A stretch of 64,000 bases of DNA from Bdellovibrionales bacterium (GCA_041740515.1 JBGSLV010000027.1:6144-70143), one strand, 5' to 3'; shown: positions 3 to 22,452, numbered from the stretch's first letter. Notes: a model not told the origin generated them from the sequence alone. Made by a program: numbers and translations.

Positions 3-701
3 GCCCATCCAAGATGTGGTGACAGCCAATTATCCATTGGGACCTGGGGTCTATCCCTCGGTGATGAACCTGAGATTGCTGGCGTAAAAGGTTCTGGCAC
101 CATTTTATTGTCCCACTGCCCTATGAAATGTCCTTCGTGTCACAATCCAGAGATGGTGGCTCAAGGGCACAGGTCATCACTTCATGATGTCATTGAGATT
201 TGCTACACCTTACTCGAATGGGGGGCAGAGAACATTCAGTTTCTGTCTCCTACGGTTCACATGGCGAAGCTAATTCCTATTTTAACTTTCTTAAAGTCTA
301 ATCGCTTTCCCATCCCTCTAATTCTAAAAAGCTCTGGAATAGAAAACCTAGACTACTTACGCCAACTCGCGGGTCTTGTGGACATTTATTTACCTGATTT
401 CAAGTATGGTCCGAACTCAGAATTTGCAAAAAGGAGTGGTTTTAAAAACTATTTTGAACTGGCCCAAGAAAATATTCATGAGATGATTCGACAAGTTGGA
501 CCGCCGAAGTATAAGAATAAGCAAACTTCAGGGGAAGTTCAGGATCGGCAACCGCCGATTTGCCTTTCTTCCGGTGTGCTGATTCGACATGTGAAAGCTC
601 CGATTCCGGAGCAGGAGAGACAGCATATTATAGATTTTCTCGGCTCTGTCAAAGAAGTCGCTCTGATATCAATAACAGATAATTTTAATAATATGGAGTG
701 A
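3..701 (+). CDS. radical SAM enzyme, pyruvate formate-lyase-activase-like (PflX-type); 5' end cut by window edge
   Basis: The frame of ORF 108..701 stays open back to base 3. The upstream translation ...GVKGSGTILLSHCPMKCPSCHNPE carries the CxxxCxxC radical-SAM cluster motif. Confidence 0.65.
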   Translation, partial: AHPRCGDSQLSIGTWGLSLGDEPEIAGVKGSGTILLSHCPMKCPSCHNPEMVAQGHRSSLHDVIEICYTLLEWGAENIQFLSPTVHMAKLIPILTFLKSNRFPIPLILKSSGIENLDYLRQLAGLVDIYLPDFKYGPNSEFAKRSGFKNYFELAQENIHEMIRQVGPPKYKNKQTSGEVQDRQPPICLSSGVLIRHVKAPIPEQERQHIIDFLGSVKEVALISITDNFNNME

Positions 702-1438: not shown

Positions 1439-1536
1439 TAAGTTCAATATAGTAAGATGGCTGACTTATAAAACATTGAAATTGTTTAAGAAAAAAACTT
1501 GCGGGCCAAATAGGACGCGCTTAGAACTTATTTGCT
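1439..1536. repeat. cassette-boundary repeat, copy A (~98 bp)
   Basis: Aligns along its length with 2564..2661 and 3179..3274. Shared blocks are AAGTTCAA ... AAAAYATTGAAATTGTT.A.GAAAAAA ... GCGGGCCAAATRGGACGCG ... GAACTTATTTGCT. Confidence 0.85.
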
Positions 1537-1563: not shown

Positions 1564-2514
1564 GTGGACATGATTCGTCATGCAAATATAGCGATCGCAA
1601 AAGTGGCTGTAAAATATTGGAATGGTGATCCAGATTCAATCACTCACGTAGGGAACCACGCGAGTTCAATTTTTACATTCAAAAACAAAGATGATAACTT
1701 ACAGATACTTCGATTCACTGACCCCTTCTTTAGGTCCCTATCCGATACAAATGCGGAACTTGCTTTTGTAAATCATTTGTATTCAGAAAATGTCCCAGTT
1801 GCGCCAGCTCTAAATACAAGTGAAGGCTTACTTGCATTTGAACTTCAAACAAAAAGCGGTTTTTTTATTTGTTCTTCAATCAAATTTGCTGAGGGCATCC
1901 ATATTGATGAAAGTTCCCAAGGTTGGAACATTCGGTTTTTTAAGGAATGGGGTAGAAATATTGCTTTGATCCATGCGTCTTCAATCCGATTCGATACAAG
2001 CAACTCCACAACTGTTCGATGGGAATGGAAAAATGAACTCCTGTTTCGACGAGCAGAAGTTTTAATTCCTCCCGAAGATACTGAGTCGAGAAGAGAGTTG
2101 CAGGAGATATTCAGCGAGTGCGAATGCCTTTCAAAATCTAACAATGATTTTGGATTAATACACGCAGATCATGCGCCACAAAATTTCAGATATGCTATTG
2201 AAGCAAATCGTATTACAGCTTTTGACTTTGGTAACTGCTGTTATCATTGGTTTATATCAGACCTTGCAATTAGTCTTTCGACCATTAGAAGAAAGCCAAA
2301 TAGAGAGGAAATTAAGGAAGGAATATTAAATGGCTATTCCTCGATTCGAGCACTTCCAAGAGATTATGAAAAGCAAATAGATTTATTTATAAGGCTGCGG
2401 GTGCTTTATTTTTACCTTTCACGTTTACATATGTGGACTAATCCAACAGAACAACAAAAGAGGGAGCTTTTGCAGATTCGTAATCGTGTTCATTCAAAAA
2501 TCGGGTGGGGTTGA
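1564..2514 (+). CDS. APH/choline-kinase family phosphotransferase
   Basis: Catalytic-loop motif LIHADHAPQNF (HxDxxxxN) followed by FDFGN (DFG-like), typical of the aminoglycoside phosphotransferase fold. The listed start is GTG. Confidence 0.6.
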   Translation: MDMIRHANIAIAKVAVKYWNGDPDSITHVGNHASSIFTFKNKDDNLQILRFTDPFFRSLSDTNAELAFVNHLYSENVPVAPALNTSEGLLAFELQTKSGFFICSSIKFAEGIHIDESSQGWNIRFFKEWGRNIALIHASSIRFDTSNSTTVRWEWKNELLFRRAEVLIPPEDTESRRELQEIFSECECLSKSNNDFGLIHADHAPQNFRYAIEANRITAFDFGNCCYHWFISDLAISLSTIRRKPNREEIKEGILNGYSSIRALPRDYEKQIDLFIRLRVLYFYLSRLHMWTNPTEQQKRELLQIRNRVHSKIGWG

Positions 2515-2563: not shown

Positions 2564-2661
2564 CAAGTTCAATACCTCAAAATGCCCTAACCCGTAAAAT
2601 ATTGAATTTATTGAAGAAAAAAAGTGGCGGTACAAATGGGACGCGTTTGAACTTATTTGCT
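2564..2661. repeat. cassette-boundary repeat, copy B (~98 bp)
   Basis: Same element as 1439..1536. Terminal boxes AAGTTCAA (2565..2572) and TTGAACTT (2647..2654) are perfectly complementary. Confidence 0.85.
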
Positions 2662-2781
2662 TAAAAGTGGGTGACAATTTCGGTTACTTTTAATGTGTAA
2701 TAGTGTGCGATGTGATTTAAAGTATTTGGCCGTTGACCGAAGCTTGATGTAGTGACCTAATAATTATTTAAGGAGAAATTT

Positions 2782-3120
2782 ATGAAAAGTTGTTTTATTT
2801 TTTTATTAGCTATTTTTTGTTCAAATTTTGTTAGCGCAGAAGTTTTTTGTGGAAAGCTTAAGGTAGGTTCTTTCAACAGTAATCCTTCAATTCAATATCT
2901 TTTAGTATCATCTACTGGTGATATTTCAGAATTAGACTTCGGTGGAGTTGCCAGTTCTCAACAAGAAATTGATGTTCTCCTACTTAAGGGATCTATTGCC
3001 AATTTTTTAGTTGATGGTCAAAACTACTGCTTTGGCGGAAAAGCTTCACAAGTTGCAAGTTATCCAGCAATTTCTTTTAATTGCGTTGAAGTTGGTGTAA
3101 CTTCAAATATGTGTAACTAA
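2782..3120 (+). CDS. small secreted Cys-containing hypothetical protein
   Basis: GGAG 8 nt upstream of the ATG. Clear signal peptide MKSCFIFLLAIFCSNFVSA. No recognisable domain. Confidence 0.45.
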   Translation: MKSCFIFLLAIFCSNFVSAEVFCGKLKVGSFNSNPSIQYLLVSSTGDISELDFGGVASSQQEIDVLLLKGSIANFLVDGQNYCFGGKASQVASYPAISFNCVEVGVTSNMCN

Positions 3121-3178
3121 GCTTATTCAAATCCAAAAAATTGCATCCTTTAACAGATTAAAAGCGTGCAGTATAATC

Positions 3179-3274
3179 GAAAGTTCGAAACCATAAAATG
3201 GCCTTAAAGTTAAAATATTGAAATTGTTCAGGAAAAAATTGGCGGGCCATTTGGGATACGAACCCTTATTTTAT
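3179..3274. repeat. cassette-boundary repeat, copy C (~96 bp)
   Basis: Same element. Its 3' part TGGCGGGCCATTTGGGATACGAACCC looks like the reverse complement of a tRNA acceptor/T-arm. It overlaps the stop of the MntA-like gene. Confidence 0.8.
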
Positions 3275-3570
3275 GCAAATCTTTTTCGGTCAACTAAATA
3301 GCCATCTTTATAAGAATCAGCAAATTCATTGATTTGAACTAAATCAATTTTATAAGGAAAATTACTATTAGTGAGTTTTTCTTGAAGTTCGCAAATTACT
3401 TTTGACAAGTCTGTATTAGACTCAACCATTAAGTCTAAATCAGAAAATTTTTGATGATCACCTCTGGCGCGTGAGCCATAACACCACACTTCGGCACCAT
3501 ATGTTTCCAAAGGTTTTACAACTTCAGTTAATATATAATCAAAATACTGGGGGGATAAACCAAACTTCAT
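3271..3570 (-). CDS. mntA: MNT-type nucleotidyltransferase (type VII antitoxin MntA-like)
   Basis: Motif GSRARGDHQKFSDLDLMV (GSxxRG...DxD) of minimal nucleotidyltransferases. 4-nt ATGA overlap with the upstream HEPN gene. Confidence 0.8.
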   Translation of the reverse strand: MKFGLSPQYFDYILTEVVKPLETYGAEVWCYGSRARGDHQKFSDLDLMVESNTDLSKVICELQEKLTNSNFPYKIDLVQINEFADSYKDGYLVDRKRFA

Positions 3571-3929
3571 TTTGTACTTAACACTTCTGCAAGCTTTTGA
3601 AGATGAGGTAAAAATTCACAGGCGAAATTATAGACCATCTCTGCAATATCTTCTTTGTAGGTATGTGATGAAAGATTTCGTTGATCTTTAGACTTTAGCC
3701 ATAACTCGACATCGTCGATATAACCGCTATGTGCCATTTCACGAACTACATCTTTAGGTGCAGCCGTTGAAGTCCCTATGATTTTTTTTGAAGTTTTCCA
3801 AACAAGCTCTACGGAAAAATCAAATCTCTGGATAACAGAATCACGAATAAATTCATTTTTAGGCTGTTCAATGGCTAGGTTAAGTTGACGGACAGCTTTG
3901 TTAAATTCTGATATCAAAGTTTTTGACAA
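3567..3929 (-). CDS. hepT: HEPN-domain protein, HI0074-family nucleotidyltransferase substrate-binding subunit (HepT-like toxin)
   Basis: About 120 aa, helical. Contains RNLSSHTY (Rx4-6H HEPN motif). Translationally coupled to the MNT gene. Confidence 0.8.
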   Translation of the reverse strand: MSKTLISEFNKAVRQLNLAIEQPKNEFIRDSVIQRFDFSVELVWKTSKKIIGTSTAAPKDVVREMAHSGYIDDVELWLKSKDQRNLSSHTYKEDIAEMVYNFACEFLPHLQKLAEVLSTK

Positions 3930-4029
3930 AGCGAAATCCTTAAAACTGTTTAATATAATTGTATCTTATAAAATAAATTAAGGTAGTAAACCATATTTTT
4001 TAACAATTAAGGTTTGAGTATTTTGAGAC

Positions 4030-4075
4030 GCAAAAATTGGCGGGCCAAATGGGACGCGTTTAGAGCCGATGTGCT
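4030..4075. repeat. cassette-boundary repeat, copy D (3' half only)
   Basis: GCAAAAATTGGCGGGCCAAATGGGACGCGTTTAGAGCCGATGTGCT matches the 3' half of copies A-C. The 5' half is absent. Confidence 0.75.
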
Positions 4076-4185
4076 CAAATTGCATGCAGTGTAAAATCGC
4101 TTAAAACTATAAATTAGTCATTTTGCTATTTAAGGTAGCCATTGCGCTATCAAAAATATAGCCACTTACTCTTTGGACCTACTTT

Positions 4186-4647
4186 TTAAGTTAAAGTTTT
4201 CTCTATGAGATAACTTTGATTTATAAATTCATCACTATGAAATTTGAAGGTATTGTCGATGCTTATATAATCTAATTTTTTGTAGCTTGGAACGACAAAT
4301 GGGCAACTATTATATAGGAATACATTGAATGTGAATTTTTTGTCTATTTCTTCAAGTCTCCAGTCCATTTCGATATTGCCGTTTTTAGTTCCTGTTTTAA
4401 CAGGATGTTTTCTGCTGAATTCGTAACTTGTTTCATTTGTTCCTAAATTTATAATTAATTGAAGAGTATGAATTCCAGTTAGCACTTTAAAAAGCAAATT
4501 TGGATCACCTGGTGGATCGTCGTAATCTAGTAACTGAGATATATCTATAGCTAATATACTAATATCTTCGACTTTCACAATTCCTGAATTTTTATAATTT
4601 AAAAAGGAATTAGCTTTATCGACGAGAGCGTTTCCAACTCGGAGCAT
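4186..4647 (-). CDS. hypothetical protein
   Basis: 153-aa ORF, co-oriented 50 bp downstream of 4698..5048. No recognisable motif. Confidence 0.4.
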   Translation of the reverse strand: MLRVGNALVDKANSFLNYKNSGIVKVEDISILAIDISQLLDYDDPPGDPNLLFKVLTGIHTLQLIINLGTNETSYEFSRKHPVKTGTKNGNIEMDWRLEEIDKKFTFNVFLYNSCPFVVPSYKKLDYISIDNTFKFHSDEFINQSYLIEKTLT

Positions 4648-4697
4648 GGCTTGGTCATCGTAATTCCCCGAACCAACTCCAACTTTAGTTTTTGGAT

Positions 4698-5048
4698 TTA
4701 CTTGAATTTCTCTTCCTTATTTGATTCATTTTCACCAATTCTTGTGGAAATACATTCAACCCAACGAAAACGATCATTTTCTAACTCAATTTTAAAGTCT
4801 GGACCTTCTTTTGTGTTTTTAAGGATTTTAAAACTATTTTTATTTAAAAATTCAAATACTCTTAGTTCCCACCACCGTTCAGTAAAGTTATTAGGAAATT
4901 GGCTTATAAAGTCTTTGGTATTTGCACATACATTTTTGAATTCATTCCATTGTGCTTCAATATAGGCTTTAATGTCGGATCTATTCTCTGAATTTCTAAC
5001 AAGTGTGTTTGCTTTTGATCCATTTTCGCTCTCAAACAATTCAGACAT
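4698..5048 (-). CDS. hypothetical protein (weak PD-(D/E)xK-like segment)
   Basis: 116-aa ORF. GPDFKIELENDRFRWVECIS loosely resembles a PD...ExK nuclease core, but the Lys is missing. Confidence 0.4.
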   Translation of the reverse strand: MSELFESENGSKANTLVRNSENRSDIKAYIEAQWNEFKNVCANTKDFISQFPNNFTERWWELRVFEFLNKNSFKILKNTKEGPDFKIELENDRFRWVECISTRIGENESNKEEKFK

Positions 5049-5281
5049 TTAAAGACCTCAATATTCTAAGCAAATCGTAAACTTAAATTAAGATTTTTTA
5101 AACTTATAATTATATGTCAATTAATTCACAGTCGATGTAAATTTCTTAAGAGTATATTTTTTTATTATTCTTAATAATTGTGATCAATTTAGAAATAGCT
5201 TGTACCTTTAAATTAACTTATCTTTAAATTTTTTAACCCGAAACAATATAAACTAATAAATCGGATACTTAAGGCTTAGTT

Positions 5282-5350
5282 CATTTTCAAACCTCCAAAA
5301 ATTTATAGTTGATCTTTGCAGAACTATAAATTTTTGGAGGTTTGAAAATG
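5282..5350. promoter_or_regulatory. 29-bp perfect inverted repeat (11-nt loop) covering the SD and ATG of the downstream gene
   Basis: 5282..5310 CATTTTCAAACCTCCAAAAATTTATAGTT is the exact reverse complement of 5322..5350. The right arm contains GGAGG (5336..5340) and ATG (5348..5350). Confidence 0.9.
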
Positions 5351-5653
5351 AAGACATTTAGAACATTGGAATTGGCGATAGAGTTTTATGGATTGGTGGA
5401 AAAATGTGAAATCAAAGGTCATTTACGTAATCAAATTTTGAGAGCAAGCTCTTCGGTTTCACTAAACCTGGCAGAAGGCAATGCAAAATCCAGTACAAAA
5501 GAAAAGAAGCGTTTTTATCAGATTTCGTATGCTTCATTACAAGAATGTAAAATCATATTTAAATTAGCAAAGTTCGAAGATAAGGTTTTGATAGATACAG
5601 CGGATAAGCTTGGAGCTTGGCTATACAACTTACTGAAATCAAACATCGGGTAA
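5342..5653 (+). CDS. four-helix-bundle protein, 23S rRNA intervening-sequence protein / Avd-like family
   Basis: FRTLELAIEFYGLVEKC...RASSSVSLNLAEGNAK...KRFYQISYASLQEC is the characteristic pattern of this family. The likely true start is ATG 5348, 8 nt after GGAGG. Confidence 0.75.
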   Translation: MKMKTFRTLELAIEFYGLVEKCEIKGHLRNQILRASSSVSLNLAEGNAKSSTKEKKRFYQISYASLQECKIIFKLAKFEDKVLIDTADKLGAWLYNLLKSNIG

Positions 5654-5723
5654 ACAACTTGTATACAAGTACTGGAATACCGGTATTCGGGTATACATGT
5701 ATACTGGTATTCAGGAATTTTAA

Positions 5724-5800
5724 TGGCGGAGCGGACGGGACTCGAACCCGCGACCTCCGGCGTGACAGGCCAGCATTCTAACCAACTAAACTACCGCTCC
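5724..5800 (-). tRNA. tRNA-Asp (anticodon GTC), CCA encoded
   Basis: Reverse complement GGAGCGGTAGTTTAGTTGGTTAGAATGCTGGCCTGTCACGCCGGAGGTCGCGGGTTCGAGTCCCGTCCGCTCCGCCA folds as a cloverleaf. Acceptor GGAGCGG/CCGCTCC, anticodon loop CTGTCAC, T-arm GCGGG-TTCGAGT-CCCGT. Confidence 0.95.
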
Positions 5801-20327: not shown

Positions 20328-20590
20328 TGTTAGTTTGTTTCTCCTTAATATATGTAAGCAGGATTAGATGCATCATATCCAAAGCGTAATTAGTTCTTTC
20401 TGAAAATATTATAAAAGACGCAGTTAAAACCCAATCCTTTAAACCTAATTAAACTCGGAAAGACACATTAAAAGTGTTTAAGTTTTTATTTAGAGCCAAA
20501 AAAGGTCGTTTTTTTACTCCCTTTTTTTAATCTACCGAAACGCTCAACAGATCGATGAAATCTTGGATTTCTAGCAAGGTATTACAAAAA

Positions 20591-21058: not shown

Positions 21059-21141
21059 GTATTTCTGATAAAAAGGCTTACAAATATTGGACCAAAACCT
21101 AATGTTTTAAATCCAATAAAACTTACAAAGACACATTAAAA

Positions 21142-21204: not shown

Positions 21205-22452
21205 CTAAATCAGATCAAGCTTTATTCTATCTTCAAAATGAATTGAGAGTTGCGCTATCACCTGACCCCAGTTCCATTTAGGAGTTTTCCATCTTTGTGA
21301 AGTGTCTTTTATAGCCAAATATAGGATTTTGAATAGGGCGTCGTCTGTTGGAAACAAGGCTCTGTTTTTTGTAATCTTTCGCATTTGCCTATGAACATTT
21401 TCGACAATGTTTGTTGTATAAATAATCTTTCGAATGGGATGCGAGTATTTAAAATAGCTTGCAAGTGTTGGCCAATTGGATGTCCAAGAATTTATAACTA
21501 CAGGATACTTTTCACCCCATTTAATTTTTAGATCCTCAAGATTTTTGATGGCTAATTCTTCAGTCGCAGCTTGGTAAACAAGTTTTAAATCTTTTAAAAA
21601 TTCCTTTTGATGTTTTGAGCCAACGTACCTCAGAGAATTTCTAATTTGGTGGACAATGCAGGTCTGCACTTCAGTTTTAGGATAGATGCTCTTGATAGCA
21701 TCGGGAAAGCCTTTAAGCCCATCCACGCAGGCAATTAGAATATCACTGACACCTCGATTTTGAAGGTCCGTTAAAACAGAAAGCCAAAAAGTAGAGGATT
21801 CATTTTCGCCAATGTAGATGCCTAAAACGTCTTTCATGCCATTGTTGTCGATAGCAAGACAAGTGTAAGCCGCTTTACTTTTAATTTTACCATCAACTCT
21901 GACTTTAAAGTGGATAGCATCAAAAAAGACGATGGGATAAATAGCCTCTAAGGGTCTGGATTGCCACTCTTTAGCATGATCCAAAATCTTCTCAGTGATG
22001 CTAGAAATAGCTGTGGGCGAAATCTCAAGGCCAAAGTAGACGTCCTTTACATGACGTTCAATATCCCGGGTGGTCATGCCTTTGGCGTACATTGATATGA
22101 TTTGCTCTTCTAGTTTTGAACTAACCCCTTCATATTTTGGTACAGCTTTGGGCTCAAAGGTTCCTTCGCGATCTCTTGGGATATCAAGGTTAACTTTTCC
22201 ATGGGTGGTTTTAACAGATTTCTTGTAACTTCCATTTCTAGAGTTTGAGGTCAGTTTGGAATTTATATCACCAGGGGCATAACCCAAATGATCTTGAAGC
22301 TCTGCTTTAAGCATAGTCTCCATTGTATTTTTAAGCATGAGCTGAAGCGCGCCACCTTCTGAAAAAAGGTCATTCATTGTTTTGGCCTGTTTTAAAGCTG
22401 AGTTTACTTCTTCGGGATCGAATAGGAACTTATTTTTTTGGTCTTTGTGCAT
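21205..22452 (-). CDS. IS256-family (Mutator-type) DDE transposase
   Basis: 415 aa. The pattern ...LKAELQDHLGY...RNGSYKKSVKT..G.V.L.IPRDREG.FEP..V...ISMYAKGMTTRDI...FFDAIHFKVR...VLGIYIGENESSTFWLSVLTDLQNRGV.DILIACVDGLKGFPDAI...T.VQTCIVHQIRNS... is diagnostic of IS256 transposases. Confidence 0.92.
   Translation of the reverse strand: MHKDQKNKFLFDPEEVNSALKQAKTMNDLFSEGGALQLMLKNTMETMLKAELQDHLGYAPGDINSKLTSNSRNGSYKKSVKTTHGKVNLDIPRDREGTFEPKAVPKYEGVSSKLEEQIISMYAKGMTTRDIERHVKDVYFGLEISPTAISSITEKILDHAKEWQSRPLEAIYPIVFFDAIHFKVRVDGKIKSKAAYTCLAIDNNGMKDVLGIYIGENESSTFWLSVLTDLQNRGVSDILIACVDGLKGFPDAIKSIYPKTEVQTCIVHQIRNSLRYVGSKHQKEFLKDLKLVYQAATEELAIKNLEDLKIKWGEKYPVVINSWTSNWPTLASYFKYSHPIRKIIYTTNIVENVHRQMRKITKNRALFPTDDALFKILYLAIKDTSQRWKTPKWNWGQVIAQLSIHFEDRIKLDLI

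Follow-up and report, generated by a model that had tools for sequence, protein, structure and literature searches.

A tRNA-Asp-anchored array of co-oriented repeats as probable att-type seams between small integrase-free gene units in a Bdellovibrionales bacterium

We analysed a 64,000-nucleotide stretch of DNA from a Bdellovibrionales bacterium (hereafter the window) and found that the repeats stacked behind its tRNA-Asp gene are probably att-type seam sites of a tRNA-anchored island, which would have grown by serial site-specific integration of small units without an integrase. The positions of the unit boundaries, the presence or absence of units between relatives, the horizontal mobility of one unit, the mimicry of a tRNA end and the confinement of the repeat to one locus were all seen directly in the comparisons below. 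The sample is a hot-spring metagenome, and the RodA protein is only about 60% identical to Bdellovibrio and Pseudobdellovibrionaceae proteins, indicating that the host is a deep relative of the Bdellovibrionales.

RESULTS

Co-oriented repeats form one local array

The window contains four copies of the repeat, all on the + strand, of which A, B and C are about 95 nt long and D is partial. Copy D, with the right half only (4032–4075), is an extra copy absent from the preliminary description of this DNA. Two further co-oriented copies, U1 and U2, were found on L001, a Logan contig from the same sample that reaches 6 kb upstream of the window. The sites and the anchoring tRNA gene are located as follows.

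1439–1536, + strand: site A, long form; left box AAGTTCAATAT at 1440–1450, AT-rich centre at 1469–1498, hexamer TTGCGG at 1499–1504, right arm GCCAAATAGGACGCGCTTAGAACTTATTTGCT at 1505–1536
2565–2661, + strand: site B, long form; left box at 2565–2575, centre at 2595–2624, TGGCGG at 2625–2630, right arm at 2631–2661
3181–3275, + strand: site C, long form; left box AAGTTCGAAAC at 3181–3191, centre at 3211–3239, TGGCGG at 3240–3245, right arm GCCATTTGGGATACGAACCCTTATTTTATG at 3246–3275, the most tRNA-like of the right arms
4005–4075, + strand: site D, short form without a left box; degenerate centre at 4005–4037, TGGCGG at 4038–4043, right arm at 4044–4075
5724–5800, − strand: tRNA-Asp(GTC), the array anchor, intact (68 bits); its CCGCCA 3ʹ end reads TGGCGG on the + strand at 5724–5729
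L001 2877–2910: copy U1, short form, upstream of the window
L001 about 1283–1385: copy U2, upstream of the window

Across the 64 kb, the 21-nt core of the repeat occurs only at these four copies, compared to an expectation of 0.18. In the whole source metagenome assembly it is confined to a single 11.3-kb contig, indicating a local array and not a dispersed repeat. Whereas REP or MITE families comprise many dispersed copies in both orientations, here every copy lies at one locus and in the same orientation.

The repeat was aligned from this genome and seven metagenome or MAG loci (L003, L008, L010/L012, L017/L020, L025 and L032/L033), and the alignment resolves three parts, namely a left box (AAGTTCGAAAC..), an AT-rich centre (..TAAAATATTGAAATTGTT.AGGAAAAAAT) and TGGCGG with the right arm. 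The right arm is strongly conserved (G[C/G]CAAATGGGACG[C/A]GTTTAGAACTTATT), constitutes the conserved core of the repeat and is kept across lineages with RodA proteins merely about 60% identical. Short forms consisting of the right arm only are D, U1, three copies in L008 and one in L017. The arrays contain six co-oriented copies in this genome, three in L008, three in L025 and two in L017, and the anchoring tRNA has the same orientation. The preliminary statement that all copies share TGGCGGGCC(A/T)3TGGGA was too strong, since A reads TTGCGGGCCAAATAGGA and B reads TGGCGGTACAAATGGGA.

When a genome collection was scanned, one true relative (the Bdellovibrionales MAG L003) and two chance matches were recovered, and a metagenome scan returned 22 loci, seven of which were true (L008, L010, L012, L017, L020 and L025 among them). 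Two scans of viral contigs yielded chance matches or genuine tRNA-Asp genes and no true copy, and BLAST searches of phage and plasmid collections with the full site gave no match. Several candidate readings were set aside. The apparent strain polymorphism in runs X2 and X3 was low coverage instead (54–65% of the sampled words present), a single joint of 2630 to 4034 taken as a strain variant was accounted for by U1 on the same contig, and a candidate half-site at L032 802–824 falls within an ORF. By eye, the core does not resemble a sigma-54 or sigma-70 promoter or a terminator, as it has no GG-N10-GC, no hairpin with a T run and no consistent gene orientation.

Relatives place the unit boundaries at TGGCGG

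Behind tRNA-Asp, the repeats divide the DNA into the following gene units.

1–1504: unit ending at site A, the distal part of a larger unit that starts upstream at L001 2877–2910; end of a radical-SAM-like gene (to 701) and an LprI-like gene at 783–1388; tail formed by the left box and centre of site A
1505–2630: APH unit; APH-family kinase gene at 1564–2514 (+ strand); tail formed by the left box and centre of site B
2631–3245: secreted-protein unit; gene for a 112-aa protein with a signal peptide at 2782–3120 (+ strand); tail formed by the left box and centre of site C
3246–4043: MNT/HEPN toxin-antitoxin unit; ORFs at 3271–3570 and 3567–3929 (both − strand)
4044–5723: tRNA-adjoining unit; right arm D, ORFs at 4186–4647 and 4698–5048 (both − strand), hairpin at 5279–5353 and gene for a four-helix-bundle '23S rRNA IVS' protein at 5342–5653 (+ strand)
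5654–5723, + strand: tail of the tRNA-proximal unit, with palindromes; it ends with TTCAGGAATTTTAA against the TGGCGG of the tRNA

The cargo consists of typical flexible genes, that is, toxin-antitoxin pairs, APH kinases, an N-acetyltransferase and small unknowns. The TGGCGG of tRNA-Asp takes the position of the crossover hexamer and has the same orientation as all the right arms; it is preceded by TTCAGGAATTTTAA, compared to TTCAGGAAAAAAT before the TGGCGG of copy C.

The clearest comparison came from L044, a 180-kb JGI contig of a relative with shared hydrolase/penicillin-amidase synteny, in which the MNT/HEPN unit is the sole unit at tRNA-Asp. In the orientation of the window, its order is core gene ..AAAGAAAAAAA, TGGCGG, GCCAAATGGGACTCGAACTC.., MNT/HEPN, ..AATGAGAAAAAAAGT, TGGCGG and the tRNA body. 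L044 is 88.9% identical in nucleotides to window 3232–4043 over 814 nt, from the TGGCGG of copy C (3232/3240) to the last G of the TGGCGG of copy D (4043), while the flanking core DNA is 67.8–68.6% identical. Past 4043, L044 continues with the tRNA body, whereas the window has right arm D and 1.65 kb of further genes before the tRNA. The limits of homology at both TGGCGG copies, together with 88.9% identity against about 68% in the flanks, indicate a discrete, horizontally mobile unit bounded by TGGCGG, and as the homology runs from TGGCGG to TGGCGG, units were inserted at TGGCGG, the CCGCCA 3ʹ end of the tRNA. The entire unit 4044–5723 is missing from L044, and we infer that it is the newest arrival.

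A second comparison involved L025 and L008, whose shared DNA and flanks are 99.5–99.8% identical. One APH cassette, enclosed by two sites, distinguishes them. At this place L008 retains one site, whose left flank is that of the first and whose variant bases, GGGTCC, are those of the second, a hybrid that locates the exchange in AATTGGCGGG. The crossover position is inferred from two comparisons of strains, and occupied and empty sites with the junction at the repeat are represented by the window and L044, by L025 and L008, and by a tRNA-Asp without an array in L040. L008 also carries at 2984–3096 a decayed, ORF-less mini-module of about 110 bp, reaching from a full site to a decayed right-arm fragment GACGAGCTTAAAACTTATT, which is missing in the otherwise 99.8% identical L025.

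A second tRNA gene also anchors an array. The array of L010/L012 ends at tRNA-Ser(TGA), which likewise ends in CCGCCA, and the 11 nt (ATTTAGAAGAA) ahead of the TGGCGG of this tRNA reappear at the L032 site, again in front of TGGCGG. In B. bacteriovorus, the neighbourhood of tRNA-Ser is the same but contains no sites. Both tRNA-Asp in the window and tRNA-Ser in L012 are intact, with the array against the CCA end.

Some mosaic boundaries fall off the sites, as with the L008 mini-module and with an HlyIII gene that starts about 70 nt past the nearest site. This HlyIII-family gene (L001 1457–2153) is 88.8% identical in nucleotides to L043 9966–10662, both flanks are wholly unrelated, and its ends match no recognisable site. 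A conserved SLT/lipoprotein gene pair lies between sites in Bdellovibrio-like genomes but also occurs in genomes lacking any site, so not all DNA between sites is demonstrably mobile.

The right arm resembles the 3ʹ end of tRNA-Asp

The preliminary description had proposed a core like a tRNA 3ʹ end, oriented like the − strand tRNA-Asp. The orientation holds, as all window copies lie on the + strand, where the tRNA reads TGGCGGAGCGGACGGGACTCGAACCC at 5724–5749, and the sequence given for copy C, TGGCGGGCCATTTGGGATACGAACCC at 3240–3265, is correct. The likeness itself was borne out and is tied to recombination at tRNA-Asp by the insertions at TGGCGG in relatives; the suggested comparison of the core with att sites at tRNA-Asp in related genomes proved productive, with insertion exactly at the CCGCCA end.

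Copy C matches the 3ʹ end of tRNA-Asp at 18/26 positions, which makes it second only to the tRNA itself among all 128,000 26-mers of the window. The figures are 15/26 for B and D (among the top 10) and 13/26 for A, and the copies other than C match mostly through TGGCGG and GGGA in register. Outside TGGCGG, the likeness exceeds chance for C (12/20, p 0.0006) and is marginal for typical copies (8–9/20, p 0.03–0.15). The right arm of L044 matches its own tRNA-Asp at 20/26, including GGGACTCGAAC at 11/11, and matches genuine tRNA-Asp 3ʹ ends of other bacteria, met by chance in the viral-contig scan, at 22/26; its 7-nt acceptor part differs from the host tRNA (GCCAAAT compared to AGCGGAC). Taken as direct repeats of the 3ʹ segment of the host tRNA, the copies thus agree in TGGCGG and the T-arm part (13–20/26), but not in the acceptor part. 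Because this tRNA-like segment sits on the non-restoring side of the crossover, we interpret it as a mimic of the recombinase target in preference to displaced host tRNA.

Rfam scans of the array region, at gathering and permissive thresholds (E<=10 with the tRNA model), detected only the real tRNA-Asp and no copy, and ARAGORN found no tRNA or pseudogene cloverleaf at any copy.

Inverted boxes are real, but base-pair covariation is not supported

In the preliminary description, inverted boxes about 80 nt apart were taken as the element ends, and a compensatory change between them as a hint of a folded recombination substrate or RNA. The boxes are present as described, with AAGTTCAA (2565–2572) and TTGAACTT (2647–2654) in copy B and AAGTTCGA (3181–3188) and ACGAAC (3258–3263) in copy C. 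They are not unit ends, however, since the true seam lies inside the repeat at TGGCGG. The comparisons with relatives place the repeat unit across this seam, so that its left box and centre form the tail of one unit and its right arm the head of the next.

The change from A:T to G:C is literally there, but as a single event at a position that is mismatched in five of the seven full copies. Across these seven copies, 74.0% of the box cells were paired, compared to 74.6% in shuffles, and the sole double-sided change was the one already described, which was equalled in 252 of 500 shuffles; only 7–8 full copies enter these tests of hairpins and compensation. The DNA folds of A, B and C on both strands had z values from −2.5 to +0.9, and RNAalifold gave no consensus structure for the copies (0 pairs). 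The proposed covariation, and with it the hint of a folded substrate or RNA, is not supported. A solitary AAGTTCGA, which the preliminary description allowed might be due to chance, does occur at 731–738; it lies within chance, as the 8-mer is found six times in the window where 2.4 are expected, a count attained in 3 of 100 shuffles.

The inverted arms themselves are real. In-register pairing reached 74% of cells, against 47–56% when one arm was slid by one column, and the left arm compared with the reverse complement of the right arm gave z of 4.6–5.4 for C and L025_2. In the Bdellovibrio-type copies, the left arm GTTCGAGACCCGT is a look-alike of a T-arm in the opposite orientation to the right arm (12/13 to the tRNA-Asp T-arm, z 5.3). 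The supposedly compensating C of ACGAAC is already found in the orthologous right arm of L044 (GGGACTCGAAC), whose left neighbour is unrelated DNA without a left box, indicating an inherited tRNA-like base and not a compensating change. As a caution, a lone apparent compensatory pair between inverted boxes can stem from common descent with a palindromic T-loop motif (TTCGAA), without any folded structure. The toxin-antitoxin unit lacks a left box in both genomes, so its mobility does not depend on one.

The left arm of copy C (3181–3203) was 27/29 identical to part of a truncated IVS-protein gene beside tRNA-Asp in L042 (219–247). The candidate origin of the long-form left half as an IVS-gene remnant was partly borne out by this match of C, while a profile of all left halves gave no IVS-gene match.

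Search for recombinase genes near the arrays

No tyrosine recombinase was found among 40 window ORFs of up to 600 aa that were scanned, and no recombinase in the 6 kb upstream covered by L001, which stops short of the far left end of the array. The same held for L003, L008, L017, the called genes of L044 and, upon reading, the ORF list of L025. The only integrase near a site, in L032 at a distance of about 4 kb and accompanied by an excisionase, looks frameshifted and was not linkable to the site. Altogether, about 15 units were examined and contained no integrase. Just past the second site of the L017 array, a frameshifted fragment (4422–4759, − strand) presumably resembles the C-terminus of an IS91-family (rolling-circle) transposase.

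DISCUSSION

A model for the growth of the array

In the model that we propose, each unit carries as its head the right arm of about 30 nt (G(C/G)CAAATGGGAC..GAAC.TTATT), imitating the acceptor and T-arm end of the tRNA-Asp gene, and as its tail an AT-rich segment (..ATTGAAATTGTT.AGGAAAAAAT), which in many units is preceded by an inverted, degenerate second pseudo-T-arm, seen as the left box. Strand exchange would take place in or immediately beside TGGCGG, the CCGCCA end of tRNA-Asp here and of tRNA-Ser(TGA) in Bdellovibrio-like genomes, and with exchange at this end the tRNA would stay intact. A unit inserting at the TGGCGG of the tRNA would land between the tRNA and the older units, and insertion at internal junctions may also occur. 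Each internal junction would then be a hybrid, tail(n)-TGGCGG-head(n+1), and an excised circle would bear tail-TGGCGG-head, the 'repeat unit' of the original description. The enzyme is probably a tyrosine recombinase that acts in trans from another genomic location or from a helper element, and it would recognise TGGCGG together with GGGAC, at a constant distance of 7 nt, in the tRNA gene and the unit head alike. An exchange region of 6–8 bp and targeting of tRNA ends are typical of tyrosine integrases. The model leaves the role of the left box unexplained, the toxin-antitoxin unit having moved without one.

A broader reading, which we offer tentatively as a possibility, is a trans-mobilised, integron-like cassette system of Bdellovibrionales relatives, with a pseudo-tRNA 3ʹ end as its site and its recombinase elsewhere. 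Primary insertion would be at the CCGCCA end of tRNA-Asp or tRNA-Ser(TGA), depending on lineage, single-gene and toxin-antitoxin cassettes would be shuffled, and the inverted pseudo-T-arms of the long form might rebuild a duplex like a tRNA gene on an excised circle or on single-stranded DNA. If units do move in trans, integron-style arrays could also arise by a second route, independent of IntI/attC, in which small cargo genes are stacked behind a tRNA gene without an integrase in any unit, and the question becomes which recombinase reads a tRNA-end mimic. TGGCGG with the conserved head of about 30 nt also provides a handle to search predatory bacteria and related organisms for flexible, toxin-antitoxin and defence genes.

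Alternative explanations

The units could be the decayed stumps of once-autonomous integrative elements (prophages, satellites or islands) with integrases of their own, the sites being attL/attR scars without mobilisation in trans. There is good precedent, tycheposon islands included, for tandem integration at tRNA genes with later decay to partial tRNA copies, the sites and the tRNA anchoring would fit equally well, and the neighbourhood of the L032 site does have a broken integrase and an excisionase. We nevertheless consider this explanation unlikely, as the roughly 15 units from several genomes, 0.6–4.6 kb long and many with a single gene, contain no integrase fragment, and the 0.8-kb toxin-antitoxin unit has the same TGGCGG-to-TGGCGG ends and 89% identity in two genomes whose core is about 68% identical, which indicates transfer, or maintenance, at its present small size. 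Moreover, the distal copy in a classical scar is the 3ʹ end of the host's own tRNA, whereas here the tRNA-like segment is on the non-restoring side and its acceptor part, GCCAAAT, is unlike the host tRNA. The idea behind the preliminary description, a folded single-stranded substrate like an integron attC or the CTX phage site in which the left box pairs with the right arm, is rather improbable. It gains from the arms being genuine imperfect inverted copies (in register and by the z scores of C and L025_2), from the Bdellovibrio-type left arm GTTCGAGACCCGT, which in sense orientation matches the T-arm, so that a hairpin would mimic the double-stranded DNA of a tRNA gene, and from the resemblance of co-oriented sites between mostly single-gene, toxin-antitoxin-rich cassettes to a chromosomal integron. 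Yet covariation did not exceed shuffles, there was no consensus fold and folding energies were not significant; the R boxes depart from RYYYAAC/GTTRRRY, the boundaries fall on TGGCGG, about 30 nt inside the right end, and not on G|TT, the left arm is lacking in the short forms (D, U1, three in L008, one in L017) and from the toxin-antitoxin unit in both genomes, and IntI was not found in the window ORFs scanned, the 6 kb upstream or the related loci.

A passive repeat of REP/MITE type, a structured RNA or a tRNA pseudogene, with units gained and lost by homologous recombination only, is largely refuted and would be very surprising. The copies are intergenic, about 95 nt long and have inverted ends, and short repeats can mediate deletions, but the copies occupy one locus of the assembly in a single orientation, are anchored on tRNA genes in two lineages, and gave no Rfam, tRNA or ARAGORN match. 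For the toxin-antitoxin unit to insert in L044 by such recombination, homology would be required, yet the tRNA side has only TGGCGG in common with it, and the varying orientation of genes relative to the repeat speaks against a 3ʹ-UTR element or terminator.

Relation to known systems

Successive tRNA-anchored integrations are familiar from the tandem accretion of ICEs and IMEs and from cis-mobilizable elements (CIMEs) in streptococci. In the tycheposon islands of Prochlorococcus, elements integrate at tRNA genes, newcomers push older elements inward, and partial-tRNA repeats lie between them. The array described here resembles tycheposon and accretion islands in its tRNA integration, in repeats that partly resemble the tRNA and are co-oriented with it, and in flexible, niche or defence cargo. 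Unlike those islands, its units have no integrase or replication module and mostly comprise one or two genes; its repeat is apparently not a straight copy of the host tRNA end, as only TGGCGG and the T-arm part match and the 7-nt acceptor part differs; its tRNA-like segment is on the non-restoring side; strands are exchanged at the very CCA terminus; and one family of sites serves tRNA-Asp and tRNA-Ser, depending on lineage.

Chromosomal integrons and CALINs share with the array co-oriented sites of about 60–100 nt with imperfect inverted arms, short and often single-gene, toxin-antitoxin-rich cassettes without a recombinase, and junctions that are hybrids of the sites of two cassettes. Unlike integrons, the R boxes fail here, the best being TCGAAAC (4/7) and GTTTAGA (5/7) in Bdellovibrio-type copies and both lost in A, B and C; the crossover falls at TGGCGG, about 30 nt inside the right end, instead of the G|TT that in attC lies 6 nt before the 3ʹ terminus; there is no conserved fold, and no IntI/attI/Pc platform was found at the loci examined; and the array is anchored on a tRNA 3ʹ end that its site mimics, with many junctions one-armed. 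In the literature on integrons and attC in Bdellovibrionota, nothing relevant was found.

Xer-dependent modules (pdif modules of Acinetobacter plasmids, and IMEX such as the CTX phage) are likewise small, integrase-free toxin-antitoxin or resistance modules bounded by short recombinase sites, with the recombinase encoded elsewhere; the likeness is one of logic only. The CTX phage has two inverted sites about 90 nt apart that fold in single-stranded DNA. By eye, the array has neither the 28-bp layout of XerC site, 6-nt spacer and XerD site nor dyad symmetry around TGGCGG, and unlike pdif sites, which alternate in orientation, its sites are co-oriented and their target is a tRNA end and not dif.

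Further features of the array and the window

Upstream of the window, L001 3053–6733 contains within one unit a five-gene module whose last gene is window 3–701. The genes encode an AAA ATPase (IetA-like, PADLOC 2e-29), a 201-aa protein, DUF1257, DUF2997 and a radical-SAM-like protein, making this a candidate defence or stress module.

In the tRNA-proximal unit, ORF 4186–4647 (− strand) is uncharacterised, as is ORF 4698–5048 (− strand), which had weak PADLOC matches to PD-T7-1 (5.8e-6) and PD-T7-5 (2.4e-4). The hairpin at 5279–5353 is a perfect 32-bp inverted repeat (TTCATTTTCAAACCTCCAAAAATTTATAG...CTATAAATTTTTGGAGGTTTGAAAATGAA) that spans the ribosome-binding site and ATG of the IVS-protein ORF, and it caused spurious matches to Rfam miRNA families; in L042, another long hairpin precedes the truncated copy of the IVS-protein gene. 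From the IVS-protein gene to the CCA end of tRNA-Asp (5654–5723), there are palindromes and 8-mer repeats (GAATACCGGTATTC and GTATACATGTATAC), with a TRF unit TACTGGTA repeated five times. Analogous palindromes occupy the same place in L042 and the left half of U1 (L001 ~2850–2876), and these palindromes may be binding sites for accessory proteins.

Farther along the window, a gene at 21205–22452 (− strand) encodes an IS256 (Mutator) family transposase (Pfam E 7.5e-111), near which a 48-nt direct repeat pair is located at 20426–20473 and 21094–21141.
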